This document shows, one piece after another, positions 6,652 through 60,388 of a DNA stretch of 64,000 bases. Source of the stretch: Terriglobales bacterium (GTDB taxonomy: Bacteria > Acidobacteriota > Terriglobia > Terriglobales > Acidobacteriaceae); assembly GCA_045807945.1 (NCBI GenBank), contig JBJMGI010000092.1:22028-86027 (forward strand), in the 5' to 3' direction. A program made the position numbers and the translations under genes. The notes beneath the pieces were generated by a model that was given only the letters and a program-made list of their open reading frames with translations, was not told the DNA's origin and did no database searches. Positions within the stretch are counted from its first letter, which is position 1. Every line of letters starts with the position of its first letter.

Positions 6652-7355
6652 CGAACTCCAGTTCCTGACACTTGCGAATTCGCGGTGTCGAAATCCAACC
6701 AGCCATCCAGCAATTTCACGATTCGACTCCCGTAAGCCGCATTCGCTTCCGAATGGCTCACCTGGACAATGGTCGTACCTTCACGGTTAAGCTGTTGAAA
6801 CAGTTCCATGATGGTTCTTGCCTGGTCGGAATGCAGATTACCGGTCGGCTCGTCTGCCAGCAGAAGTTTGGGATCGTTCACCACAGCGCGTGCGACGCCC
6901 ACGAGTTGCTGCTGTCCCCCCGAGAGCTGCGGAGGATAAAGGTCTTTTTTCCCGACAATGTGGAAGCGGTCGAGGATGTCGGCTACCTTGGCGGCTCGGT
7001 CGGAACGCTTGATGTCCTTATAGGAAAGCGGCAGGTCGATGTTCTCTGCGACGGTCAGATTGTCGAGCAGGTGGTAGCTCTGGAAAACAAATCCAATGTT
7101 CTTTTTGCTGAGCTCAACACGTTCCTTGCGGTTCAGTTTCTGGACGGGCTGCCCGTCGAAGATATATTCGCCTTCCCAGCTGTCATCGAGCATGCCCAGA
7201 ATGCTGAGCAGGCTCGTCTTGCCGGCGCCGCTCGGCCCCATTACAGTCACAAACTCGCCTGGTTCGATGGACAAGTTAATGCGACGCAGTACGAACGTCT
7301 CGCCCGCGGGGATCTTGTAACTCTTTTGTAGGTTCTTAAGTTCGATCATGGTCAT
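6648..7355 (-). CDS. ABC transporter ATP-binding protein (MacB/LolD type)
   Basis: Walker A GPSGAGKT, signature LSGGQQQ, Walker B LLLADEPTGNL, H-loop VSH. Start chosen at MTMIELKNL (7355); its ATG overlaps the TGA of the upstream permease (ATGA). Confidence 0.9.
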   Translation of the reverse strand: MTMIELKNLQKSYKIPAGETFVLRRINLSIEPGEFVTVMGPSGAGKTSLLSILGMLDDSWEGEYIFDGQPVQKLNRKERVELSKKNIGFVFQSYHLLDNLTVAENIDLPLSYKDIKRSDRAAKVADILDRFHIVGKKDLYPPQLSGGQQQLVGVARAVVNDPKLLLADEPTGNLHSDQARTIMELFQQLNREGTTIVQVSHSEANAAYGSRIVKLLDGWLDFDTANSQVSGTGVR

Positions 7356-9871
7356 TCGTAGCGCAGCGCCACCATGGGATCTACTTTCGTCGCGCGTCGA
7401 GCGGGGATCATGCTGGCCAAGACCCCGACCGCCGCCAGGATTGCGACGACGACAACAAGCGAAAGCGGGTCGGTATTCTGCAATCCGAATAACATGCTGT
7501 TGATCAGGCGCGTGCACAGAATCGCCAGCGGAACGCCGATACAGATCCCCACTCCGACAAGCAGCATCGACTCGCGCATCACTAGAGTGAGCACGTTTCC
7601 CCGCTGCGCGCCCAACGCCATGCGCACCCCGATCTCGCGTGTGCGGCCGGCGACTGTGTACGCCATCACCCCATACAGGCCTATGCAGGCCAACGCAAGC
7701 GCGAGAGCCCCAAAAAAAGTGGAGAGCTTGGCGATTGTGATTTCGTTGCTGATCGTCGAATCGACCAAGTAATCCATTGTCTTGATGCTGCTGATCGGCA
7801 GACCCGAGTTGAACGACTTGATCTCAGCCCGCGCGGTTTCCGTCATAGCATCAGGATTCACGGCTGTTCTGATGGCTATTTGCATCAGTCCAAGAGCTTC
7901 GTCCGTCTGCGAGATGGGTCGATAAAACATTGGCGGGATCGGCTTCTCGAGGCTTTGATGGCGCACATCGCGAACCACACCAACTATCTGCATTGGTTTA
8001 TCGACATACTTCGGATCGTCGATTGCGAAGTGGCGACCCATCGGGTCCTGTCCATGAAAGAAAAAGTTCACGAACTGCTGGTTAACCACGGCCACTCGGG
8101 TTGAGCTTGCAGTGTCTTGGGCGCCGAACTCGCGGCCCTCTATAACCGGGATGCTGAGTGCGGAAAAGAATCCCGGGCTGATTTTGTCCCACGATGCCTG
8201 CTTCTGGTCCTCATTGGCGGGGACAAAGTTTTCCACGTTGATGCTGCTGTCGCTATCAGAGCCGGAAAAGAGGCCTGACTCCGAAATTGCGACTTGCTTC
8301 ACTCCGGGCATTCTTTCCAGCCGTCTTTGCAGCTCATCAGCGACTTGGGTTGAAGCGGCGGGCGTCTCATAGCCGGCAGTGATCGGGTCCACGCGTACCA
8401 GCAACAAGTGGTCGCGGCTAAACCCTAACTGCACGTTTTCCAGATTTTTTAGGCTGCGGATCAGGAGACCGGCGGCGAACAGCACCAGCACAGAAAGAGC
8501 AACCTGTGCCGCCACGAGAAGCTTGCCCCATTGGAAACCACCGCGCGTTCCTGATTCGCCGGCGCTAACGCCGCCTTTGAGTGCCGAGTTCACATCAACT
8601 TTAAGAGATCGTAAAGCCGGCACCAATCCAAACAGGATGCCCGTCAGCAGGCATACGCTTGCGGTGAAGGCGAGCACGCGAAGATCGGGCGTGATCTGCA
8701 ATCCCGTACTTGCCACTGTGACTCCGAAGAGCCGCAGGAGGAGCTGTGTTCCCCAGAATGCGAACAAAAGTCCCAAACCTCCACCCAGGAAAGCCAGCAA
8801 CACGCTCTCGGTCAGTAGTTGCGAGACCACGCGCGACGGCTTGGCGCCGATCGCGAGCCGCACCGCCATCTCTCGTTGTCGTACCTTCGCGCGGGCGAGC
8901 AAAAGGTTGGCGACATTCACGCACGCTATAAGCAGCACCAGTCCCACGATCCCCATCAGGAGCATCAATGGCTTTGCAAAGCTGCCGCGCAGTACGGACA
9001 TTCCCCGTGCCCCGGGGACGACATCAATCGGGTGTTTCTTCACTTCGACCAGATCGTTCTGTCGAAGCCGCGCGCCGAATGATCCATTCAATGCTTGTTG
9101 CAGCACAACGTTCAAATTTGCCTTTGCTTGTGAAACCGAGACACCAGGCTTGAGCCGTGCCATCAGCGTGAGCCAAGAAGATTCAGGATCGTCGAGCCAC
9201 TTGCGACCGCGGAGCACCTGCGATTGCATCATCATGGGGATCCAAACTTCCTGAACGTCTCCGACGACTTGCCCGTGGAACCCCGGCGGCGCCACTCCGA
9301 CGACCGTGAGCGGGTACTCGTTGAAGCGAAGTGTAGTACCCACGATGCTCGGGTCTGAGTTGAAGCGGCTGCGGAACATGGAGTAGCTGATGACCGCGAT
9401 CGGGTGTCCTCCTTCAACTTTGTCGTCGTCGGGCGTCAGGGTCCTTCCTATGTACGGGTTTACACCAAGCAGCGAGAAGTAATTCCCAGTGACTAGCGAA
9501 CCCACCACTTCGTCGGAAATGCTCTTTCCAGATGCATCCGCGGTGCGGACTCGATGTATTTCCCCCGCAGCGAGCACATCTTCAAAGACGTTGTTGTGGT
9601 CGCGGATCTCCTTGTAGAGCGGGTAAGAGAAGATGTCCGTCTGCGGAGTGCCATGGGAACGGTTGTGCGCCAGCGTCGGATCGCCGATCACCACCAGCCG
9701 CTGCACGTCGCGCACCGGCAGCATCTTCAGGATGACTGCGTTGATCAGTGTGAAGATGGCGGTGTTCGCGCCGATGCCCAGAGCCAAGGTGAGCACGGCT
9801 ACGGTCGTGAAGCCGGGCGACTTGGCTAACATTCTGAATGCGTAGCGGACGTCTTGCAGGATCGATTCCAT
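7352..9871 (-). CDS. ADOP-type duplicated MacB/FtsX permease (839 aa, no NBD)
   Basis: N-terminus LQDVRYAFRMLAKSPGFTTVAVLTLALGIGANTAIF. Two MacB-periplasmic-domain plus FtsX modules. C-terminus PARRATKVDPMVALRYE. Its ATG directly follows the TAA of the preceding gene. Confidence 0.85.
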   Translation of the reverse strand: MESILQDVRYAFRMLAKSPGFTTVAVLTLALGIGANTAIFTLINAVILKMLPVRDVQRLVVIGDPTLAHNRSHGTPQTDIFSYPLYKEIRDHNNVFEDVLAAGEIHRVRTADASGKSISDEVVGSLVTGNYFSLLGVNPYIGRTLTPDDDKVEGGHPIAVISYSMFRSRFNSDPSIVGTTLRFNEYPLTVVGVAPPGFHGQVVGDVQEVWIPMMMQSQVLRGRKWLDDPESSWLTLMARLKPGVSVSQAKANLNVVLQQALNGSFGARLRQNDLVEVKKHPIDVVPGARGMSVLRGSFAKPLMLLMGIVGLVLLIACVNVANLLLARAKVRQREMAVRLAIGAKPSRVVSQLLTESVLLAFLGGGLGLLFAFWGTQLLLRLFGVTVASTGLQITPDLRVLAFTASVCLLTGILFGLVPALRSLKVDVNSALKGGVSAGESGTRGGFQWGKLLVAAQVALSVLVLFAAGLLIRSLKNLENVQLGFSRDHLLLVRVDPITAGYETPAASTQVADELQRRLERMPGVKQVAISESGLFSGSDSDSSINVENFVPANEDQKQASWDKISPGFFSALSIPVIEGREFGAQDTASSTRVAVVNQQFVNFFFHGQDPMGRHFAIDDPKYVDKPMQIVGVVRDVRHQSLEKPIPPMFYRPISQTDEALGLMQIAIRTAVNPDAMTETARAEIKSFNSGLPISSIKTMDYLVDSTISNEITIAKLSTFFGALALALACIGLYGVMAYTVAGRTREIGVRMALGAQRGNVLTLVMRESMLLVGVGICIGVPLAILCTRLINSMLFGLQNTDPLSLVVVVAILAAVGVLASMIPARRATKVDPMVALRYE

Positions 9872-12295
9872 TTACTCGTACCTCAGGGCGACCATGGGGT
9901 CCACATTGGTGGCGCGCCGCGCCGGGATCAAACAAGCAATGATTGCGACCGCGAACAGGAGCGCGGGAATCACAAAGAACGTGAGCGGGTCGTGCGCGCT
10001 CACGCCGTACAAGAGCGAGCTCATGAGGCGGGTCAAGGCGGATGCTAAAAAGATTCCAATAGTGGCTCCGATAACCGCGAGTCGTGCACCCTCGCCAAGG
10101 ATCATCGTCAGAACATTTCCTCGCGTGGCACCCAGCGCCATACGCACGCCGATCTCGCGCGTCCGTTGGATCACACCCTGCGAGATCACTCCGTACGCTC
10201 CGACGCAGGCGAGAGCAAGCGCGGCACATCCAAACACCGCAAGCAGCAACATGGTAACGCGTCGGATGGCCATCATCTCCTTCGCTGCCGTTTCCATGCT
10301 GACCACACGTATCACTGGCTGGTCCTTGTCCACGCTCCAGATCGCCTGCCGCGCGGAGTTGACCACCGAGTCGGGGTCGCCATTCGTGCGCAACGTGAAT
10401 GCCATCATCTGAAAGAGGTACGGACTCTGGTTGTACGAGACATACATCTCCGGCTGAATGTCTTGATCTAGGCCGGCATGTTTAACGTCGTTGATGATGC
10501 CAACGATTTGTGCCCAGTGTGGTTTTCCGGGCTCACCAAAATCGACCCGCTTCCCAATCGCGTCTTTGTCGGCAAAAAAGTTCTTGGCGAATCTTTCATT
10601 CACCACGGCTACCAGCGGGGAATTCAATCGGTCGGTATCGTTGAAGCCGCGACCCTTGAGGACGCTGATACGCATCACGGCGAAATATGCAGGCGTGACC
10701 ACGCGGAAAGCCGATTCCGGCTGGTCCTGGGGATTAGGCGAGGTGCCTTCGATGGTAAAGGTGGTGGTTGAATCAAATCCGCTAAGCGGAAGAAAGTCGA
10801 TTGCCGCCGCGTGCTGCACCCCAGGGGTGCCCGAGAGCGCGGGAAGTAGCCGGTCCATATAGGCGCGCTTTGCGGGATCATCGGGATATTTCTTCTCCGA
10901 CATAGTGATGTACATCGTCAGCACGTCGGAGGGATCGAAGCCATACGACATCCGCTGCAATCGGTCAAAACTCTTTATCGTTAACCCCGCCCCGATCAGG
11001 ACCACGACCGCAATCGATATTTCCGCGACCACCAATGCATTGCGGAGCCACTTGCTTCGCTTGCTGATGCCAGATGAACCGCTCGCGTCTTTCATGCTTT
11101 GGGCGACGTTGCCGGAACTGCTGTGCAACGCGGGCGGCAATCCAAACAGCAGCCCCGTGAGCAGGACCAGTCCTCCGCAAAACGCAAGCACTGAGGCGTT
11201 GATAGGAATACTCTCGACCCGCGGTATTCCCAGGTTATAGATATGAGTAGGGAAGACGGCAACCAGTCCGCGGGTGACCCAGTAAGCGCACAAAACTCCA
11301 AGCGCCCCTCCGATAGCGGAGAGCAACAGACTTTCGGAAAGGAGCTGGCGGATGAGATCGGTACGGCCTGCCCCAAGTGCAACCCGTACCGAGATCTCGC
11401 GCGTGCGGGCGTGCATGCGCGAGAGCATCAGATTGGCTACATTCGCTACGGCTATCAGCAGCAAAAGTCCGACCGCGCTAAACAGGATCAGTAGTGTCGG
11501 ACGGATGTCCCCGACCTTTCCCTCGCGAAAGTCTCTGAGCAGCACGCCCCAACCGGCATTCGTTTCTGGATGCTCTATCGCCAACTGCTTGGCGATGGAA
11601 TTCAATTCGTCGCTGGCTTGCTGCATTGTGACCCCCGGCCGCAAGCGACCCACTAGTCGAAGGTCGAACTTGTCGCGGTCCTGGTAGCTGGCCGGATCCA
11701 TATCGAGCGGAAGCCAGAGCTCGCCATTCTCTGGTTGTCGGAAGTCTTGTGGCATCACGCCAATAACCGTGTGCGGTGTTCCGTTCAAGGTGATGCTTTT
11801 GCCGACGATACTTGCATCTCGCGCCAAGCGGCGGTCCCAAAGTCTATAGCTGATCACCACCACCGGTGCGTGCGCGGTGCCATCTTCCTGCTCGGAAAAA
11901 GTGCGACCCATCAACGGCGGGACATCCAGCGCCTGGAACATGCTATGCGCGAATCGATAACCGGTGATGGCTTCTGGTTCACCGTTGCCGGTCAAGTCGA
12001 CCGGGCGAAGGTCACGCGAGACGCCGATCACTTCAAAGGAATGGCTGCGCTGCTTCCAATCGAGATAGTTTGCGGGACGCACCGGTGTGCGATGCGCTTT
12101 CATTTCACGAATATCTACCAGCCGGTCCGAGTGAGGAAAGGGCAGCGGTTTCAGCAGGACCTCGTTCACGACCGCGAAGATGGCGGTGTTCGCGCCGATG
12201 CCGAGCGCGATACAAATTACTACCGTGATGGAGAAAGCGGGATTCTTGAGCACAGTCCGCATAGCCATGCGGATATCGTGCAACAGCCGTTCCAT
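9872..12295 (-). CDS. ADOP-type duplicated MacB/FtsX permease (807 aa, no NBD)
   Basis: Start chosen at MERLLHDIRMAMRTVLKNPAF, with GGGGAG 7 nt upstream. Same duplicated architecture as its neighbour, ending PARRATNVDPMVALRYE. Confidence 0.85.
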   Translation of the reverse strand: MERLLHDIRMAMRTVLKNPAFSITVVICIALGIGANTAIFAVVNEVLLKPLPFPHSDRLVDIREMKAHRTPVRPANYLDWKQRSHSFEVIGVSRDLRPVDLTGNGEPEAITGYRFAHSMFQALDVPPLMGRTFSEQEDGTAHAPVVVISYRLWDRRLARDASIVGKSITLNGTPHTVIGVMPQDFRQPENGELWLPLDMDPASYQDRDKFDLRLVGRLRPGVTMQQASDELNSIAKQLAIEHPETNAGWGVLLRDFREGKVGDIRPTLLILFSAVGLLLLIAVANVANLMLSRMHARTREISVRVALGAGRTDLIRQLLSESLLLSAIGGALGVLCAYWVTRGLVAVFPTHIYNLGIPRVESIPINASVLAFCGGLVLLTGLLFGLPPALHSSSGNVAQSMKDASGSSGISKRSKWLRNALVVAEISIAVVVLIGAGLTIKSFDRLQRMSYGFDPSDVLTMYITMSEKKYPDDPAKRAYMDRLLPALSGTPGVQHAAAIDFLPLSGFDSTTTFTIEGTSPNPQDQPESAFRVVTPAYFAVMRISVLKGRGFNDTDRLNSPLVAVVNERFAKNFFADKDAIGKRVDFGEPGKPHWAQIVGIINDVKHAGLDQDIQPEMYVSYNQSPYLFQMMAFTLRTNGDPDSVVNSARQAIWSVDKDQPVIRVVSMETAAKEMMAIRRVTMLLLAVFGCAALALACVGAYGVISQGVIQRTREIGVRMALGATRGNVLTMILGEGARLAVIGATIGIFLASALTRLMSSLLYGVSAHDPLTFFVIPALLFAVAIIACLIPARRATNVDPMVALRYE

Positions 12296-43079: not shown

Positions 43080-43140
43080 CTTATTGGAACAGAGTTGCAA
43101 TGCACCTCTGGGTCGAACCTGGAAAAGGCCACATAGGGTT

Positions 43141-44160
43141 ATGTCAAATCGGGCTGTTATTACTCCCTTGGAAGAATCCTCCCCCGTCAGCAACATTCGG
43201 CGTGACGCGCTATTTAGCGACGTATTCACCTCAGAATGGTCGCTGTGGGATTCCCTCAAAGAAAACGTTCGCTCCGTCGTAAAGCCGGAAAAACTTCCGC
43301 CGCTCAAGCTGACGTCGCGTCCCGTGAAAGTCCGGGAGATTTGGGGTCAGTCGCAACGCCCCAAGACGGCTGCAGTAGGCTCGCTGATCGCGCATGGCTT
43401 GTTCTTTGGATTGATCGCCTTCGCGCTCATGCAGCCGGCGAAGCAAACTCCTCAAGAACCGCCTAAGCAGGTGACGCATCTCGTCGCTCCTCCGCTCAGC
43501 GACTACATGCCCATGCAGCAGGACCCCGGGCCGGCGATGTCCGGTGGCGGGGGCGGTGGTGACCATGACATCGTGCAGGCTCCCAAGGGTAAGCTCCCTA
43601 AGGTTTCGCCGGTGCAGATCACTCCTCCGGTTGTGATCACGCGTAACGATGCGCCAAAACTTCCGGTGGAACAGACCGTAGTTGCTCCTCCGAAGGTGAA
43701 TCTCCCTAACGCCAGCATGCCGACGATCGGCGACCCGATGGCGAAGCTCGCAGGTCCTCCCTCGAACGGAGTCGGTTCGAGCGCTGGAATCGGCGCAGGC
43801 TCTGGCGGCGGTATCGGTAGCGGCGCAGGCGCAGGTCTTGGACCGGGCAGCGGCGGTGGATTCGGCGGCGGAGTGTACAAAGTGGGTGGCGGAGTTTCCG
43901 CGCCCCGTCTCCTCGTCTCACCGGATCCGGAGTACTCGGAAGAAGCTCGTAAAGCAAAGTATCAAGGCACAGTCGTAGTTTGGATGATTCTTGGTCCCGA
44001 TGGGCGTCCGCAGAAGTTGAAAATTCAACGCGCTCTCGGCATGGGTCTGGATGAGAAGGCGCTCGAAGCGGTGAAGCAGTGGCGCTTCGAACCGGCCAAG
44101 AAAGACAATCAGCCCGTAGCCGTGGCCATCAGCGTGGAAGTTAACTTCCACCTCTACTAA
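43141..44160 (+). CDS. tonB: TonB-family energy transducer
   Basis: N-terminal TM anchor, a Pro- and Gly-rich spacer, and the C-terminal TonB domain YSEEARKAKYQGTVVVWMILGPDGRPQKLKIQRALGMGLDEKALEAVKQWRFEPA. Confidence 0.8.
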   Translation: MSNRAVITPLEESSPVSNIRRDALFSDVFTSEWSLWDSLKENVRSVVKPEKLPPLKLTSRPVKVREIWGQSQRPKTAAVGSLIAHGLFFGLIAFALMQPAKQTPQEPPKQVTHLVAPPLSDYMPMQQDPGPAMSGGGGGGDHDIVQAPKGKLPKVSPVQITPPVVITRNDAPKLPVEQTVVAPPKVNLPNASMPTIGDPMAKLAGPPSNGVGSSAGIGAGSGGGIGSGAGAGLGPGSGGGFGGGVYKVGGGVSAPRLLVSPDPEYSEEARKAKYQGTVVVWMILGPDGRPQKLKIQRALGMGLDEKALEAVKQWRFEPAKKDNQPVAVAISVEVNFHLY

Positions 44161-44225
44161 GTTCCGCTAAACGGCGGTCAGATTCTTCGCAGTACTTAAC
44201 CGAGTCGAGTCGAAGAACGCAGAAG

Positions 44226-44260
44226 GGAAGGCGCGAGCCTTCCTTTTTTGTTTTGTTTTG
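44226..44260 (+). terminator. Intrinsic terminator after tonB
   Basis: GGAAGGC-gcga-GCCTTCC followed by TTTTTTGTTTTGTTTTG. Confidence 0.6.
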
Positions 44261-44262
44261 CT

Positions 44263-44790
44263 TTACAGACCGCCGCCTGCCCGCTTCGCCTGTACACAGC
44301 ACTCGCCTTCCGGGATCGGACTCCCGTGGGGACACGTGCGCGGGTGTTGCAAAAAGGTACAAATGCGTTCGGTAGCTTGCGCTGACAAGATGTGCTCGAA
44401 CTTGCACGCCTGCTGCTCGATCTCAGCTTCGCTCTCGATGTGCAGCGTCTCCGTAAAGAGCTTCTCCGCTAACCGGTGCCGCCGGATGACCTCGCTTGCG
44501 CGCTGGCGCCCACGCTCGGTAAAGTCCACCGTGAAGCGCCCGTGCTCGGGAAGAGGCCCCGAAGCCTGCATCGCCTCGTGACAGCGGTTCAGGATTTCTT
44601 TGTGCGTGTGCGGCTCAGACGACTGGTGGTCCGCCAGGGTCAACAATCCCATGTCGGCCATCTTCTCGATCGCCATATCTACCGGCAACGCACCGTCTAC
44701 CTGGATGCGGCCCATGTCCGCGACTTGACCGTTCTCTTTCACCACCCAAATTTCTTCCAGGATCTCATCGAACTCTTCTTCGTCTGAGAA
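44263..44790 (-). other. DtxR-like domain portion of the ATPase fusion
   Basis: Equivalents of the DtxR metal ligands are present: H79/E83 (RRHRLAE) and C102/E105/H106 (ACKFEH). H98 is replaced by Glu. The putative wHTH segment has few basic residues. Confidence 0.6.
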
Positions 44791-45471
44791 GGAGAAGATC
44801 TCCTGCGCCGAGATCTTTCCATGATGCAGCTCGATGCGTCGGTCAGCAAGACGCGCAACCGTGGGATCGTGCGTCACCATCACGATGGTCCGCCCTTGCT
44901 CGTGGAATTCACGCAGCAAGCGCAGGACGATCTCTTCGTTCCGCGCGTCCAGGTTCCCGGTGGGCTCGTCGGCAAGCACGATAGCGGGATCGTTGATCAG
45001 CGCTCGCGCTATGCACACACGCTGCTGCTCGCCCCCCGAGAGATGCGCAGGAATGTGGTGTGCCCGGTCCTTCAGCCCCACACGCCGCAAGGCTTCGAGC
45101 GCTTCGGCTTCGTCGGTCATACTGTGGAAGTACTGCGCCAGCATCACGTTCTCGAGCGCGGTGAGGTACGGGATGAGATGGAATTGCTGAAAGATGAACC
45201 CGATCTTTTCCGCGCGGAAGCGGTCGAGCTGCTTGCGGTCGAGCGCGGCGACGTTCTCCCCATTTAGCCAGACCTCGCCTGAGCTCGGTCGGTCGAGGCA
45301 TCCGATCAGATTCACGAGCGTGGATTTTCCCGAACCCGATGGCCCCATGATCGAGACCCACTCGCCTTTTTCGATGGTCAGATCGATCGCGTCGAGCGCG
45401 CGGATCACGCCACCATCGCCGTCAGATTTCGCGGGATAGGTCTTGCTCACGTTTTTTATCGCGATACCCAT
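44263..45471 (-). CDS. ABC transporter ATP-binding protein fused to a C-terminal DtxR/MntR-like metalloregulator module
   Basis: aa 1-225: Walker [19 protein letters not shown], Walker B IVLADEPTGNLD, VTHD. aa ~228-402: EILEEIWVVKENG..., RRHRLAEKLFTETL, ACKFEH, and TCPHGSPIP, which is the DtxR-family helix / metal-site / CPHG pattern. Confidence 0.8.
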   Translation of the reverse strand: MGIAIKNVSKTYPAKSDGDGGVIRALDAIDLTIEKGEWVSIMGPSGSGKSTLVNLIGCLDRPSSGEVWLNGENVAALDRKQLDRFRAEKIGFIFQQFHLIPYLTALENVMLAQYFHSMTDEAEALEALRRVGLKDRAHHIPAHLSGGEQQRVCIARALINDPAIVLADEPTGNLDARNEEIVLRLLREFHEQGRTIVMVTHDPTVARLADRRIELHHGKISAQEIFSFSDEEEFDEILEEIWVVKENGQVADMGRIQVDGALPVDMAIEKMADMGLLTLADHQSSEPHTHKEILNRCHEAMQASGPLPEHGRFTVDFTERGRQRASEVIRRHRLAEKLFTETLHIESEAEIEQQACKFEHILSAQATERICTFLQHPRTCPHGSPIPEGECCVQAKRAGGGL

Positions 45472-45479
45472 GCGTCAGT

Positions 45480-46571
45480 TCATTCGCCCTTCAAGATTAC
45501 CGCAGGCTGCGTTTGGCTCAGCAGCGCCATCGGGATCAGCGCCGCCAAGATCGTGAGAGCGATACTGCCAACGAGCACCATCGGGAAAACATCCCATTGC
45601 GGAAGCACGACCGCCTGAAAGTTGAATCGCCCGATCAGGAACGCAACCGCGATGCCGAGGCAAAATCCGAGCACCGCGCCCGCCGCCCCGAGCAACGTGG
45701 CTTCACATGCAAACAGTGCGCTTGCAAGTTGCGGTGAAGCGCCGAGGGCCTTCATAACGGCGAAGTCTTTTCTGCGGTCGAGGACCGAGCTGGTCAAGGT
45801 CGCCAACACGCAGAGCGCTGAAATGACAATGATGATGATGACCGCGATCAGTAACGTCGAGCGCGCTTTCCCGAAGACCTTCGCTTCAGCTTCTGTGATT
45901 TGCTTGATGGGGCGCACATAGGCGCCGGGAAGAGCCGAAGCCAGCGAGTTCACAAGCGCGCTTACATCCTGCGGCTTACGGTCGGCGGCGATCTCGATCG
46001 TGTCCGCCCCAAGACCCGTCCAGGCTGTGAAATCCTCGAGTGGCATGTAAATGCGACTGTCTTCCGTGCTTCCGGTCAGCAGGATCCCAGCCTGACGCAC
46101 GGTGATTCTCTTTCCACGGAATTCAAGAGAGAGATCGCCTTTGCCAAACTGCTTCGCTGCACGCGAGCCCAACAACGCCTTCCCATGTTCCGGCCATGAA
46201 CCTACCATCCAGAACGGGTCGATTTTCCGAGTTCGCTGCACGTCGAGGCCGCCGACCACCACCGCCTGGCCGTTCGCCTTCGCGATCACGTATCCGAACG
46301 GCGCGGCCGATTCACTAGCACCAAGCTGAGCATCCACCTTGTGCAAAGCGTCGGCTGGAAGCGTCGCGTCAGCCTTAGAGGTAATGATCAGGTTCGCGCC
46401 GTATCCCCGAAAATCTCCGCGCAGCTTCGCTTGGACATCCGTAAACAGAGTAAGCATGGCTGTGGCTGCCGTGGCCGCCACAACCACAGCGAGCACCGCG
46501 ATGGCGGAGCTTCCGCGCCTCACGATCAGCGGGCGCAGCAGCACGCGGAAAAACATTCTGCTGCGGCTCAT
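45480..46571 (-). CDS. FtsX-like ABC transporter permease
   Basis: 363 aa: N-terminal TM, an extracytoplasmic domain, and a C-terminal FtsX 3-TM module (DFAVMKALGASPQ...). Confidence 0.8.
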   Translation of the reverse strand: MSRSRMFFRVLLRPLIVRRGSSAIAVLAVVVAATAATAMLTLFTDVQAKLRGDFRGYGANLIITSKADATLPADALHKVDAQLGASESAAPFGYVIAKANGQAVVVGGLDVQRTRKIDPFWMVGSWPEHGKALLGSRAAKQFGKGDLSLEFRGKRITVRQAGILLTGSTEDSRIYMPLEDFTAWTGLGADTIEIAADRKPQDVSALVNSLASALPGAYVRPIKQITEAEAKVFGKARSTLLIAVIIIIVISALCVLATLTSSVLDRRKDFAVMKALGASPQLASALFACEATLLGAAGAVLGFCLGIAVAFLIGRFNFQAVVLPQWDVFPMVLVGSIALTILAALIPMALLSQTQPAVILKGE

Positions 46572-47833
46572 TGGCTACCTCGCAGCACGTGCGCCGGATC
46601 AAGCCGCACCGCGCGGCGAATAGAGGCAATCGAACCGCCATAGGTAACCAGAAATGCGACAGCCAGCACAATAGGGAAGAGCACCGGCTGCAAGCTGATG
46701 CTGGAGTTGAAAATGCTGCGTCCGATCTGCGCAGCTAAAACTCCACCCAGAGCAAACCCGACTACGCCGCCGATGGTTGCGAGCACTCCTGCCTCGGTCA
46801 TGAACAATGCGGCGACGGACGAGTTATCGGCTCCCATCGCCTTCATCAGCCCGACTTCGGTACGCCGCTCCATTATCGCTGTCGCCATAGCCGCCGAAAC
46901 CGCAAGCGCCGCTGCACAGAGCGCAGCGATAGTGATCAGCAGCATCAAACCCTTTATCCGGTTCAGGATTTTGCCTTCGTTCTGTGCGACGCGGCGGATC
47001 TGCTCGGCGTGGGCATTCGGGATCACCTCTTCGATCTGGTGCGCGATCGAGAGCGCGTAAGGAGAGCAGTACCAGCGGTCGTAAGCCGGACCTTTTAGGG
47101 TTCTCGGATCGGTGCGCGCGAACGCATCTTCCGGCTTCGTGACCGCGCTCACCAGGATGCTTCGGACGACGCCCGGCTTTCCGGCGATGTCTTGCGCCAA
47201 CGTAAGTGGGCCGACCACCGCATCTTCCTCGCCCGCTCCCGTCCTGAGGACTCCAGCGACCGTGAGCTGACGCCCGGCGACGGTGAGTGCATCGCCCGGC
47301 TTCACGTTCAAGCCTTGCGCGAGCCTTGCACCGACTAAAACCCTCTGCGAATCGTCAGCTGGCCATTCGCCTTGAACTTTCCACCAGGGGCTGGTCTTGG
47401 TCACGCCCTCGACGAACTCGTCTTTTCCGTAGCGAAGCTGCTTGGCGAAATATGTCCCGATCAGTTCGACATTGCGCGATTCTGCGCCGGATCGAGCTTG
47501 AACGCTCGTTGAGAGGAACGGAGCGAAGCCGCGGATGTTATTGCGCCAGAAAATCCCTTTGATCTTGGGAAGCTCGGCCTCGTTAAGATAAGCGCCCTCG
47601 CTAGCTGGCTTGATGTTCACTCCGCCCACATTCAGATCGAGAGTGTCTTCCTGCGGGACAACCGAGATGTTCGCGCCAAAGCTACGCAGCTCTTCACTGA
47701 CCTTATCGCCAATGTCGGTTGCAATCGCGATCGTCGCGGTCGCGACCGCGACGCCCAGCGTGATCGCGACGGCGGCCATCAGCTTGCGGCGACGTTGCAA
47801 CCGGAACGATTGATAGATCAACCGTAGGAACAT
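46568..47833 (-). CDS. FtsX-like ABC transporter permease
   Basis: 421 aa with the same architecture (EVGLMKAMGADNS...). 4-nt overlap with the downstream permease gene. Confidence 0.8.
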   Translation of the reverse strand: MFLRLIYQSFRLQRRRKLMAAVAITLGVAVATATIAIATDIGDKVSEELRSFGANISVVPQEDTLDLNVGGVNIKPASEGAYLNEAELPKIKGIFWRNNIRGFAPFLSTSVQARSGAESRNVELIGTYFAKQLRYGKDEFVEGVTKTSPWWKVQGEWPADDSQRVLVGARLAQGLNVKPGDALTVAGRQLTVAGVLRTGAGEEDAVVGPLTLAQDIAGKPGVVRSILVSAVTKPEDAFARTDPRTLKGPAYDRWYCSPYALSIAHQIEEVIPNAHAEQIRRVAQNEGKILNRIKGLMLLITIAALCAAALAVSAAMATAIMERRTEVGLMKAMGADNSSVAALFMTEAGVLATIGGVVGFALGGVLAAQIGRSIFNSSISLQPVLFPIVLAVAFLVTYGGSIASIRRAVRLDPAHVLRGSQ

Positions 47834-47835
47834 GA

Positions 47836-49083
47836 TTATTTCGTGAAGTGGACCGCTGCCGTTTGCAGGTCAGCCTGCTCAATGACCACTGCGTCTCGGC
47901 TCTCGCTCGAATGCAGCGGGATCGGATTGCAGCCGCCGCTCTGTCCGACCGTTTGCGGATTCACCGGGGCCGCGCAGTTCTTGCAGACCAGTCCTTGTGC
48001 TGTCTTGTAATAGCCGACGGAGCCGCAGATCTCGCATGCATCGAGGACGGTTGCAATTTTCCCATCCGGCTTCTGGTAGAGCAGGAAGCGCACCTCGGTC
48101 CCATTCACCTTGGCCGCATAGCGGTGCAGGTCGCCGTCTGAGACTTGCGATTTTGGAATCGATGCCTTTCCGTCTACGAACGTGAGTTCAGTCGCCGGTG
48201 AGAGGGAAGTGGTGCTCTTCGCATAAACGAACTCAGCCGTGACCGAAGCTATGAAGATGAAGCACGCGACGCAAACCGAGATCATCCATAGGCGCTCGCG
48301 GCGGAAGCTCCACTCCGCTTTGCGCTGCTCGGCCTTGCTCTCAGCGCTAGGCAACGGAGCACGCCGGCGGTATTCCAGCAGGATCATCATCCCCGTCAGC
48401 GCAAGAATGGTCACGGCAAAGAACCAGTCATTCCGCACGATGGGTCCGATGGTCGCCATTTCAGCTTTGTTCGAGGGGATTACGCCGTTTTCCGACAACT
48501 CGTGCAGACCTGTGACCAGAAGCTGCGCGGCAACGAAGAAGAGGATGACTGTCGTGATCTTAAAGAACTTGCGCAGGTCGATGCGGACGCTGCCTTTGAC
48601 GAACATCACGCCGAAGACCACCGCGAGCGCGACTCCAATCAGCGTGCCTAAAAAGCGCAGCAGCTCGCTGGTGTTGAAGCTGACAGTGGCGAGGATCAAG
48701 ACCGTCTCCACGCCCTCGCGAAGCACCATAAGGAAAATGAAGAAGAAAACACCGATTCGTGATCCCGTTGTTGCCAGGCCGCCCAGCTTGGTCTCGATGC
48801 TGCCCTTCATCGTCTTGCCCGCCTTCATCATGAAGACGACCATGGAGGCGACGAACGCAGCCGCGGCCAGCATCACCCAGCCTTCGAAAATGTCCTGGTT
48901 CCACTCCCAATGGGAGATTACCACCGCCACCGCCAGGCTGCCTACGAAGGCGCTGCCCAGCGCCCAATAGACCAGTTTGCGCAGTTCGGGACGCCGTATC
49001 TTAGAGAGATAAGCCAGGGTGATGCCGACGATGAGAGCAGCTTCCACCCCTTCGCGGAGGGTGATGATCAGGGCTTGCAGCAT
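47836..49083 (-). CDS. FTR1-family iron permease fused to a DUF2318-like Cys-rich domain
   Basis: Two REGVE motifs (TLREGVEAALIVG and VLREGVETVLIL), equivalent to the REXXE iron-permease motifs. The C-terminal 130 aa read CEICGSVGYY...CKNCAAPV...GGCNPIPL. Confidence 0.8.
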   Translation of the reverse strand: MLQALIITLREGVEAALIVGITLAYLSKIRRPELRKLVYWALGSAFVGSLAVAVVISHWEWNQDIFEGWVMLAAAAFVASMVVFMMKAGKTMKGSIETKLGGLATTGSRIGVFFFIFLMVLREGVETVLILATVSFNTSELLRFLGTLIGVALAVVFGVMFVKGSVRIDLRKFFKITTVILFFVAAQLLVTGLHELSENGVIPSNKAEMATIGPIVRNDWFFAVTILALTGMMILLEYRRRAPLPSAESKAEQRKAEWSFRRERLWMISVCVACFIFIASVTAEFVYAKSTTSLSPATELTFVDGKASIPKSQVSDGDLHRYAAKVNGTEVRFLLYQKPDGKIATVLDACEICGSVGYYKTAQGLVCKNCAAPVNPQTVGQSGGCNPIPLHSSESRDAVVIEQADLQTAAVHFTK

Positions 49084-49091
49084 AGATGTTT

Positions 49092-49122
49092 GATATTGAA
49101 AATGAAATTCATTTTCAATATC
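49092..49122. promoter_or_regulatory. Perfect 31-bp palindrome, Fur-box-like operator
   Basis: GATATTGAAAATGAA-a-TTCATTTTCAATATC, with 15-bp arms. The central 19 bp, GAAAATGAAATTCATTTTC, match the E. coli Fur consensus GATAATGATAATCATTATC at 15 of 19 positions. It lies between the -10 box and the ATG of the FTR1 operon. Confidence 0.6.
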
Positions 49123-49123
49123 T

Positions 49124-49153
49124 ATCTTACTCGCCGCTGCGCGTTTCCGTCAA
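49124..49153 (-). promoter_or_regulatory. Predicted sigma-70 promoter of the FTR1 operon (TTGACG-N18-TAAGAT)
   Basis: On the minus strand, -35 is at 49153..49148 and -10 at 49129..49124. The predicted TSS falls inside the palindrome. Confidence 0.45.
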
Positions 49154-50862: not shown

Positions 50863-51393
50863 TCACTTCTTCTTTTCTTTAGGAACGCGCCCGCCGATGT
50901 CCTCGAGTTCTTTTCTCGCTGAGTCGGAGCTCTCGTTTACCGCGTCGACTGCGTTCTGCAACACGAAGTCGTAATCCTTCTCATCCGCGCCGCCGGTTTC
51001 CTTCAGCGCTCGCAGCTTCAGCTTCCAATTGGATTCGGCTTCCACCAGCTCCGTGAGCGGCTTGATCAGATCAGCTTTCTTCTCGCGATAATCATCGAGG
51101 TTGTCCTCCGTCTCATCCACAAGTGAAAGGAAGTCTTCCAGAAGATCGTGGATATGCTGCCCCCGCCCCTGTGCCATCTTCGGGTCGGCGCGAAGCTGAT
51201 CGATCGCGGTTAGCCGCGCCGTGGCGAAGGTAACGTACAGATGAAACCGCTTCTGCGGGTTCAGGGCCTGTTCGCGTATCTGATCCGTTTCCTGGTCGGT
51301 TAGCGGATCACGCTTATGCTGCCCGCCAGCAAAAAGGGATGACGAGAGCGCGATTAAAGTGAGAGCGGTAAGAGGAATCCGTGAATGTCTCAT
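50863..51393 (-). CDS. Hypothetical secreted helical protein (176 aa)
   Basis: Signal peptide MRHSRIPLTALTLIALSSSLFAG. Acidic, helical mature part with a Lys-rich tail. Starts directly after the stop of the upstream ORF. Confidence 0.5.
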   Translation of the reverse strand: MRHSRIPLTALTLIALSSSLFAGGQHKRDPLTDQETDQIREQALNPQKRFHLYVTFATARLTAIDQLRADPKMAQGRGQHIHDLLEDFLSLVDETEDNLDDYREKKADLIKPLTELVEAESNWKLKLRALKETGGADEKDYDFVLQNAVDAVNESSDSARKELEDIGGRVPKEKKK

Positions 51394-51837
51394 TCATTTC
51401 CTGAACAGCAGGTCCAACAACTCCGACCGCAACTCCTGAACGTGTTCGGCGGCGGCTGTGATCGGCGGCCGGTCATCCACGTCTGCAGCACGCGCTACTT
51501 CTTCCAGACGCCGCTGCAGCTTGTGCATCTTCAATTCTGTTTGTTTGATGCGGTTTCCCGAACGCCCGACGGTTGCGCGCGCTTTCTCGGCATAACTGAT
51601 CACGCTCTGGATGTCGTCCCGGGTCTTCATGAAGTCTCCCGATCCCAGGTGTTGGCTGGCCTGCTCGGCATAGCGGCTCGCCACATCCACGTAGAGCTCG
51701 GCTTGCTTGTCGCCTCCGGCTTCCGCGCGCGCGATCAGCTTATCTAGCGGTTCCGTGCCAGCGAAGAGTCGCACGCCGCTTGTCAGCAACAACAATGCGA
51801 CGACAGGGACGAGTTTGGAAGTTCTATTCACAGTCAC
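51394..51837 (-). CDS. Hypothetical secreted helical protein (147 aa)
   Basis: Signal peptide KLVPVVALLLLTSGVRLFAG. 4-nt overlap with the upstream TPR gene. Confidence 0.5.
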   Translation of the reverse strand: MTVNRTSKLVPVVALLLLTSGVRLFAGTEPLDKLIARAEAGGDKQAELYVDVASRYAEQASQHLGSGDFMKTRDDIQSVISYAEKARATVGRSGNRIKQTELKMHKLQRRLEEVARAADVDDRPPITAAAEHVQELRSELLDLLFRK

Positions 51838-60314: not shown

Positions 60315-60388
60315 TGCCTCCTCGTTCAATGGTAGGACACGTGGCTCTGAACCACGGTATCGGGGTTCGAATCCCTGGGAGGCAACCA
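60315..60388 (+). tRNA. tRNA-Gln (anticodon CUG), CCA encoded
   Basis: Hand-folded cloverleaf. The 7-bp acceptor stem is UGCCUCC/GGAGGCA with a U1:A72 pair. D stem is GUUC/GGAC with a GG loop. The anticodon stem is CGUGG/CCACG with loop CU-CUG-AA. T arm is CGGGG-UUCGAAU-CCCUG. Discriminator A followed by CCA. Confidence 0.85.

Follow-up and report, generated by a model that had tools for sequence, protein, structure and literature searches.

In Campylobacter jejuni, fetM, fetA, fetB, fetC and fetD of the cluster fetMP-fetABCDEF (CJJ81176_1649-1656) are each required under low iron, a Fur box lies 10 bases upstream of fetM, and the authors describe FetBCD as still unclear in both function and substrate (PMC10783030). 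Here we analyze a four-gene operon of this kind in 64,000 nucleotides of DNA from a Terriglobales bacterium (Acidobacteriaceae; assembly GCA_045807945.1, contig JBJMGI010000092.1, positions 22,028 to 86,027 of the forward strand), a stretch that we call the window and number from its first nucleotide. Like FetMP-FetABCDEF of C. jejuni, E. coli F11 and IncF plasmids, the operon encodes, in the same order, an FTR1 permease, a cysteine-rich (Cys) domain of the DUF2318 family, two FtsX permeases and an ATP-binding cassette (ABC) ATPase, and like the C. jejuni cluster it carries a Fur-type box close to its first start codon. The gene set itself is thus a known kind of system, and the operon is very probably a streamlined Fet-type iron importer. 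The original prediction for this locus, made from the DNA letters and their translations alone, had pointed to a related Campylobacter neighborhood with an ABC part of poorly understood role, and both points hold: the neighborhood is real and now carries the fet names, and FetBCD is still described as unclear in function (PMC10783030).

The operon consists of four minus-strand open reading frames, here genes 1 to 4, at 47836-49083 (415 amino acids, aa), 46568-47833 (421 aa), 45480-46571 (363 aa) and 44263-45471 (402 aa), of which genes 1 and 2 are 2 nt apart, genes 2 and 3 overlap by 4 nt, and genes 3 and 4 are 8 nt apart, in exact agreement with the predicted span and spacings. Their products divide into the following parts, where TM denotes a transmembrane helix.

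48370..49083, minus strand: FTR1/EfeU-type permease core, aa 1-238 of gene 1, seven TM (Pfam, topology, motifs)
48235..48291, minus strand: eighth TM helix, aa 265-283 of gene 1 (hydropathy scan, loop Lys + Arg counts)
47839..48234, minus strand: predicted periplasmic FtrD-like (DUF2318) domain, aa 284-415 of gene 1 (Pfam, invariant Cys, model)
46568..47833, minus strand: FetB-like type VII ABC permease, gene 2 (Pfam MacB_PCD + FtsX; FetB identity)
45480..46571, minus strand: FetC-like type VII ABC permease, gene 3 (Pfam MacB_PCD + FtsX; FetC identity)
44800..45471, minus strand: FetD-like ABC ATPase domain, aa 1-224 of gene 4 (Pfam ABC_tran; FetD identity)
44266..44799, minus strand: DtxR/IdeR-like two-domain module, aa 225-402 of gene 4 (PF02742, IdeR similarity, AlphaFold2/Foldseek)

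We compared these proteins with the canonical cluster fetM-fetP-fetA-fetB-fetC-fetD-fetE of the E. coli IncF plasmid NZ_CP048311.1. The ABC domain was 60% identical to FetD (E 3e-90), the first FtsX permease 39% identical to FetB over its full length (E 3e-93), and the second 27% identical to FetC over its full length (E 3e-41); these alignments identify the three proteins, whose genes keep the Fet order, as direct orthologues of FetB, FetC and FetD. The FTR1 core matched the membrane domain of FetM (27% identity, E 2e-13; 82 bits and E 2e-27 with the family profile), and residues 173-414 of gene 1, spanning TM6-TM8 and the Cys domain, matched FetA (26%, E 3e-22). BLAST and tblastn alignments that ran on into TM5-TM8 suggested that the membrane domain of FetA is a degenerate FTR1 paralogue, and we rejected this candidate: the acidobacterial profile scored 6 bits on FetA versus 82 on FetM, the hhalign probability was 0.8%, and the Pfam FTR1 model found no match in E. 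coli FetA at E values up to 10. The extension into TM5-TM8 is probably noise from hydrophobic segments.

The operon also departs from the Fet cluster in several ways. Its Cys domain is joined to the permease, and a separate fetA gene is absent; the fused protein stops right behind the FtrD-like domain, and unlike E. coli FetA it has no YHS domain and no polytopic membrane domain save the last TM helix; the permease lacks the N-terminal periplasmic domain of FetM; FetP/P19 and the FetE/F thioredoxins are missing from the locus; and the ATPase bears a DtxR-like module that E. coli FetD (231 aa) does not have. Searched by tblastn with E. coli FetP, neither the 64-kb window nor any of 80 related loci (together 1.15 Mb, about ±8 kb per operon) gave a match, and the immediate neighbors of the operon are not PF10634 proteins. 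EfeO was absent from those immediate neighbors and was not searched for beyond them, so that the predicted lack of a P19/EfeO-type partner stands for P19 across the locus, the window and the related loci, and for EfeO next to the operon only. No FetE- or thioredoxin-like gene occurs in the window, and TlpA-like matches were found in only two of the 80 loci. In one locus from Ca. Angelobacter (L001), the ABC-DtxR gene is followed immediately by a TlpA/thioredoxin-like gene (7095-7496), which may be a remnant or a re-acquired FetE-like partner.

A similar comparison can be made with FtrABCD (Bordetella, Brucella, Rubrivivax) and EfeUOB, which likewise pair an FTR1/EfeU-type permease with an extracytoplasmic redox or iron-binding partner. 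In the Fur-regulated FtrABCD operon, FtrD is a membrane Fe-S protein described as a polyferredoxin (PMC7415376). Unlike the window operon, these systems have P19/FtrA or EfeO together with a cupredoxin or peroxidase, and no FtsX-type ABC module; by comparison, the fused Cys domain is the sole candidate partner in the window operon.

We found the module in at least 557 reference genomes in a scan of one genome per species, the named ones belonging to Acidobacteriota; the best 80 of these 557 or more are Terriglobales, including Ca. Angelobacter, Korobacter (locus L037 is from a metagenome-assembled genome assigned to Candidatus Korobacter versatilis) and Sulfotelmatobacter, and named relatives are Terriglobales, Polarisedimenticolia or 'Acidobacteria bacterium'. 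All four genes stood in the same order in 64 of the 64 loci in which 3.8 kb or more of sequence precedes the ABC gene, with both fusions aligning as full-length single proteins in 60 of them. Remoter ABC-DtxR fusions came from Ca. Polarisedimenticolia (P0293) and from a second large acidobacterial clade (P0267, P0518), and since this second clade has the same four genes and both fusions in an unrelated neighborhood, the operon appears to be a self-contained unit. That the fusions are artefacts of frameshift, assembly or gene calling, or that the genes are adjacent by chance, is refuted by thousands of database proteins of identical architecture from several sources, by the 60 full-length loci and by the exact window protein sequences in independent public records. 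Both fusions are the standard form in Terriglobales and other Acidobacteriota. The permease fusion is kept across two deep acidobacterial clades, and the original argument from fusion to a physical association of FTR1 and DUF2318 is reasonable. One 2.2-kb contig of a metagenome-assembled genome (L062) is binned as Gemmatimonadaceae, yet its proteins are 70% identical to those of Terriglobales, and it is most likely mis-binned and not a sign of spread to another phylum; no plasmid record covered 80% or more of the fused permease.

A permease joined to a cysteine-rich domain

The gene 1 protein matched FTR1 (PF03239) over residues 1-199 with E 3.7e-33 and a score of 115.5 bits, where the cutoff is 25.3, and PF10080 over residues 314-413 (E 3.3e-30). 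PF10080, 'FtrD-like', is the current Pfam name of DUF2318, and NCBI names the protein 'Fe-S-containing protein'. The FTR1 core contains two REXXE motifs, both REGVE (aa 10-14 and 122-126), and Pfam and motif positions thus bear out the predicted fusion of an FTR1 permease with a DUF2318-like Cys domain. Against the EfeU equivalog model NCBIfam NF041756 the protein scored 149.1 bits, under the 255-bit cutoff, and a sequence search of solved structures with the fused protein gave no match at E values up to 1.

Hydropathy and the positive-inside rule predict a seven-TM core with its N-terminus outside and its C-terminus inside. Behind the core come a basic loop in the cytoplasm (aa 239-264), which has nine Lys/Arg, and then TM8. 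Because the seven-TM core ends inside and is followed by TM8, the last 132 residues should be periplasmic. These residues contain the motif C350-x2-C353-x13-C367-x2-C370-x14-C385 (read as CEIC, CKNC and GGCNPIPL), whose five cysteines are invariant among homologues, and which is identical to the published DUF2318 motif CxxC-x13-CxxC-x14-C (PMC6083913).

The AlphaFold2 model of the FtrD-like domain is confident and mainly beta-strand (predicted local distance difference test score, pLDDT, 87.9; predicted TM-score 0.83), and its top 50 Protein Data Bank fold matches in Foldseek were all Rieske [2Fe-2S] domains of Rieske oxygenases. This weakly suggests a Rieske-like domain in which four or five Cys would replace the Cys2His2 ligands, and these Cys might bind an Fe-S cluster or one metal ion, or might form redox-active disulfides. 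The fold matches were weak (E 0.025-0.14, none below 1e-3; TM-score 0.35-0.49), the domain has CxxC...CxxC...C in place of the Rieske CxH...CxxH cluster ligands, and the CxxC pairs could equally well serve as a disulfide relay.

A further conserved element precedes the last helix:

48286..48309, minus strand: S-x-R-R-E-R-L-W motif, aa 259-266, directly before TM8 (conservation among homologues)

The motif is nearly invariant (of 121 homologues, 120 keep R261 and 117 keep R262), and E. coli FetA reads QRRNALRLW at the matching position. It may be a twin-arginine translocation (Tat) signal that exports a cofactor-loaded domain, or a mere positive-inside topology signal; in the former case, the Cys domain would possibly be loaded in the cytoplasm and Tat-exported behind seven Sec-inserted helices. 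The motif deviates from the Tat consensus S/T-RR-x-F-L-K, and the FTR1-FtrD family is unlisted among dual Sec/Tat-inserted polytopic proteins (PMC5449189). TM8 is among the most hydrophobic helices of the protein (Kyte-Doolittle 2.35), with one Lys only closely behind it, and is therefore a misfit with the published rules for such proteins (Tooke et al. 2017), which have a final TM of low hydrophobicity and positive charges after it.

Type VII permeases and an ATPase with a DtxR-like module

Genes 2 and 3 each combine an FtsX four-TM domain with a MacB-like periplasmic core, as judged by Pfam (MacB_PCD and FtsX in both) and by TM pattern, in line with the two FtsX-type permeases predicted at first. 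Gene 4 encodes an ATPase domain (ABC_tran at residues 26-171, E 4.6e-36) in which the Walker A, Q-loop, signature, Walker B and H-switch motifs are all intact. The four-TM FtsX domain with a large periplasmic MacB_PCD domain is shared with the type VII systems MacAB-TolC, LolCDE, FtsEX, HrtBA and YbbAP-TesA, and the operon resembles LolCE in having a heterodimer of permeases with a separate ATPase. Type VII ABC systems such as MacB, LolCDE, FtsEX, HrtBA and YbbAP perform work on the cell envelope and not import, and the best NCBIfam matches of the ATPase and permeases were exporter or extractor families, for example MacB, LolCDE and DevA. Outside the Fet family we know of no type VII member with an FTR1 permease or with a metal-sensor domain on its ATPase, and our literature searches found no other system with either.

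Behind residue 224 of the ATPase, and joined by a very short linker, all homologues carry the DtxR-like module. PF02742 (Fe_dep_repr_C) matched residues 318-388 of the gene 4 protein (E 2e-25, 89 bits against a cutoff of 27), and residues 222-402 are homologous to IdeR/DtxR, with 1b1b as the best sequence match in the Protein Data Bank (E 6e-14). The AlphaFold2 model (pLDDT 76) led Foldseek to the two-domain IdeR/DtxR fold over about 165 columns, with a TM-score by target of up to 0.80. The module comprises an N-terminal winged-helix-like domain and a metal-binding/dimerisation domain, and no SH3-like domain. The predicted ABC ATPase with a C-terminal DtxR-like part was thus upheld by ABC_tran, PF02742 and the two-domain IdeR fold, whereas Pfam found no match to the DtxR helix-turn-helix (HTH) family, PF01325, in the same protein. 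Among other PF02742 proteins, P0351 carries Fe_dep_repr_C and FeoA behind a transketolase-like N-terminus, a fusion that may come from gene calling, and P0338 has Fe_dep_repr_C-FeoA followed by an FMN_bind domain.

The module is like the DtxR/IdeR/MntR regulators in its two-domain fold, in PF02742, in the Cys/Glu/His ligands of the primary site and in the His/Glu ligands of the ancillary site. By alignment, the IdeR ligands H79, E83, H98, C102, E105 and H106 correspond to H332, E336, E352, C356, E359 and H360 of the window protein, and IdeR M10, placed on what we take to be the N-terminal IdeR sequence, corresponds to E236. These seven window residues are conserved in 117-119 of 119 close homologues, and C356, E359 and H360 are invariant also in fusions of other 50%-identity clusters. 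Unlike these regulators, the module is the C-terminal part of an ABC ATPase and not a stand-alone soluble factor, its HTH is degenerate, the SH3-like domain is missing, and there are extra Cys and a His-rich wing insertion.

The Met10-aligned position is Glu in the window and His in other clades. This harder ligand, together with the Mn2+ sensors included in the DtxR family, speaks for another metal as the substrate, and the exporter and extractor families found by NCBIfam speak for an export or detoxification pump like most MacB/FtsX systems. Both REGVE motifs, which belong to the iron path of FTR1, the operator resembling a Fur box (below) and the retained equivalent of Cys102 of the Fe-responsive DtxR/IdeR proteins argue instead for iron, as do the closest characterised relatives, FetBCD, which support iron-limited growth (PMC10783030). 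We therefore judge transport of another metal, or export, to be improbable.

The winged-helix part of the module looks poorly suited to DNA. Helix 2 of the HTH is not predicted in the AlphaFold2 model and contains a 2-residue deletion, a Met occupies the position of the base-contacting Gln43, the HTH-equivalent segment has a net charge of -3 compared to +1 in IdeR, and the region differs strongly between fusion clades. Since the HTH is degenerate, the fused module is probably a sensor rather than a repressor. Under the opposing explanation, in which the module is a DNA-binding repressor and the ABC ATPase doubles as a membrane-tethered, metal-dependent autoregulator at its own palindrome, one would expect the module to span the entire DtxR N-terminal domain and that region to be conserved within Terriglobales, as is the case; the missing PF01325 match and the features just listed weigh on the other side, as does the operator evidence given below, and we give this explanation a low probability.

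The module also has invariant residues without an IdeR counterpart (C371, C380, H382, C391 and C392), which fall in a pattern IC..F..HP..CPHG..IP.G.CC common to all fusion clades, and, in Terriglobales only, a His-rich wing insertion of about 30 residues (aa 282-310) with invariant C297 and H298. The additional Cys and His may form a second metal site or an Fe-S site. They would also suit a cytoplasmic iron acceptor or chaperone, or a device that couples each ion to one ATP-driven reset, in which case metal would activate the ATPase; the invariant metal ligands, the very short linker and the constant company of the FTR1 fusion wherever context is known fit this idea. We nevertheless find it unlikely, since no chaperone of the DtxR fold is known to us and the characterised C-terminal ligand domains of ABC ATPases that we know are all brakes or regulators, and since the orthologous FetD works without the module, which makes the module an add-on and not part of the core cycle.

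Promoter, operator and proposed mode of action

Two elements lie upstream of gene 1, the second directly after the -10 hexamer of the first and between the -35/-10-like pair and the start codon:

49124..49153, minus strand: sigma-70-like promoter, TTGACG-18 nt-TAAGAT (consensus match only)
49094..49120, no strand assigned: perfect 27-nt palindromic operator, TATTGAAAATGAA-T-TTCATTTTCAATA, Fur-box-like (read directly in the sequence)

The palindrome is unique within the window, and 51 of 62 related loci carry it with three or fewer mismatches at a distance of 30-73 nt from the start codon, on its upstream side. It occurs at no other promoter in the 1.15 Mb of related loci, although this says little on a global regulator given the roughly ±8 kb covered per operon. 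With the consensus sequences used here, the palindrome shares 15 of 19 positions with the Fur box of E. coli, a level reached by 2 of 2000 shuffles, and 9 of 19 with the DtxR/IdeR box, no more than expected by chance; DtxR/IdeR, MntR, Zur, PerR and SloR operators were all rejected as candidates on chance-level matches. From this Fur-like operator overlapping the promoter we infer iron repression of the operon.

A second operator variant, (A)GTTGCAAnTCAnTTnCAAC(T), of the type TTGCAA...TTGCAA, replaces the TTGAAA type in 8 of 66 loci (for example L032, L047, L053, L066, L083, L085 and L086, the last at 9970-9992) and in the whole second clade. It keeps the same position relative to the TTGACG -35 hexamer, and the promoter layout is likewise retained in the distant clade (TTGACG-N17-TAGACT upstream of the operon in L086). 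The variant differs mainly at one symmetric position, a change that suggests a co-evolving trans-acting regulator. Within Terriglobales, the 'GALPVSIAVEKM' helix of the module is the same whether a locus has a TTGC-type or a TTGA-type operator. A palindrome conserved at this operon's promoter only would suit repression by the fused module, and we rejected such autoregulation because the operator is Fur-like and not DtxR-like and because its variant does not co-vary with the HTH-equivalent helix in Terriglobales. The lack of covariation points to a separate regulator that reads the operator, most simply a Fur-family protein.

We favor the reading that the operon is a self-contained, iron-repressed, P19-independent Fet-type importer whose motor is braked by the fused module, and put the probability of this statement as a whole at roughly 50%. 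Iron would cross the membrane through the FTR1 core. The periplasmic Cys domain would bind a metal or Fe-S centre and act as the redox or hand-off partner, the role that P19, FetA and thioredoxins have in other bacteria, and the FetBCD-like machine would use ATP to act mechanically in the periplasm, upon the Cys domain or upon bound iron, without transporting iron itself. Rising cytosolic Fe2+ would then bind the DtxR-like modules of the two ATPase subunits and lock the motor, providing a fast, post-translational brake atop slower transcriptional repression by a separate Fur-type regulator. This trans-inhibition step would have nearly, though not quite, an even chance of being correct.

Trans-inhibition through ligand binding occurs at the C2 domain of MetN, the TOBE domain of ModC and the regulatory domain of MalK. 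By analogy with these proteins, the window ATPase has, directly after its nucleotide-binding domain, an extra domain to which the transported species could plausibly bind on the cytoplasmic side; in contrast to them, the fold of that domain is DtxR-like and not TOBE/ACT-like, and the transporter belongs to the type VII class and is not itself the import path. More tentatively still, a metalloregulator fold may have been re-used as an allosteric iron gauge that stops or paces a type VII motor acting on an FTR1-tethered Cys domain, a generalisation that we hold to be possible and rather doubtful.

Several points weigh against an iron importer controlled in this manner. A P19 protein could be encoded elsewhere in the genome, and the available sequence contains no fur gene. 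P0267 lacks the ancillary-site residues corresponding to H79 and H98, and the Glu or His at the Met10 position means that the specificity could be for Mn2+ or another metal. Good conservation of the N-terminal winged-helix part among Terriglobales implies some function, and DNA binding by the module, while unlikely from its sequence, would be one. Finally, that iron is the substrate, that the module binds Fe2+ and that the ATPase is thereby inhibited are predictions for all acidobacterial members.

Surroundings and significance

By Pfam, the genes flanking the operon encode TonB_C, GNAT, SprT-like and TPR proteins and two proteins without a match. The TonB-family gene (TonB_C, E 3.7e-22; 43084-44160, plus strand) is convergent to the operon and, together with the gene for isoleucyl-tRNA synthetase, is syntenic in many Terriglobales loci; it does not lie beside the operon in the second clade and is probably a neighbor rather than a component of the system. 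Between the two convergent genes lies one further feature:

44221..44248, no strand assigned: GC-rich terminator-like hairpin between the convergent ABC and TonB-like genes (consensus scan)

Its T-run is on the plus strand only, and a function for the minus-strand operon would be hypothetical. The two proteins without a Pfam match (176 and 147 aa; 50863-51393 and 51394-51837, minus strand) have hydrophobic, signal-peptide-like N-termini, are encoded in the area upstream of the operon, between the TPR protein and the SprT-like gene, and recur in an identical public contig, L087. A tRNA gene at 60315-60385 (plus strand) was the sole Rfam match in the window at the gathering threshold.

Literature searches on the ABC-DtxR fusion, on FTR1 with FtsX, on an acidobacterial system and on newer work on the FetABCD mechanism returned two Campylobacter papers only. 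The fusion of the permease with DUF2318, the loss of P19, thioredoxins and YHS, and most notably a type VII ABC ATPase that bears a DtxR-like sensor appear to be undescribed.

Clusters of the Fet type are relevant to Campylobacter, uropathogenic E. coli, Yersinia and Salmonella plasmids, and a mechanism for FetA and FetBCD is lacking. The four genes described here, which encode FTR1, DUF2318 and FetBCD without P19 or thioredoxins, are a candidate for the minimal Fet core, and the covalent tie between DUF2318 and the permease is Rosetta-stone evidence for their joint function. The compactness of the system suits it to reconstitution and structure determination, and a metal sensor on the ATPase offers a testable control mechanism that, if true, would be the first post-translational metal feedback through a DtxR domain. 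As the standard high-affinity iron permease locus of Terriglobales, which are abundant soil bacteria, the operon also bears on how iron is acquired in soil.

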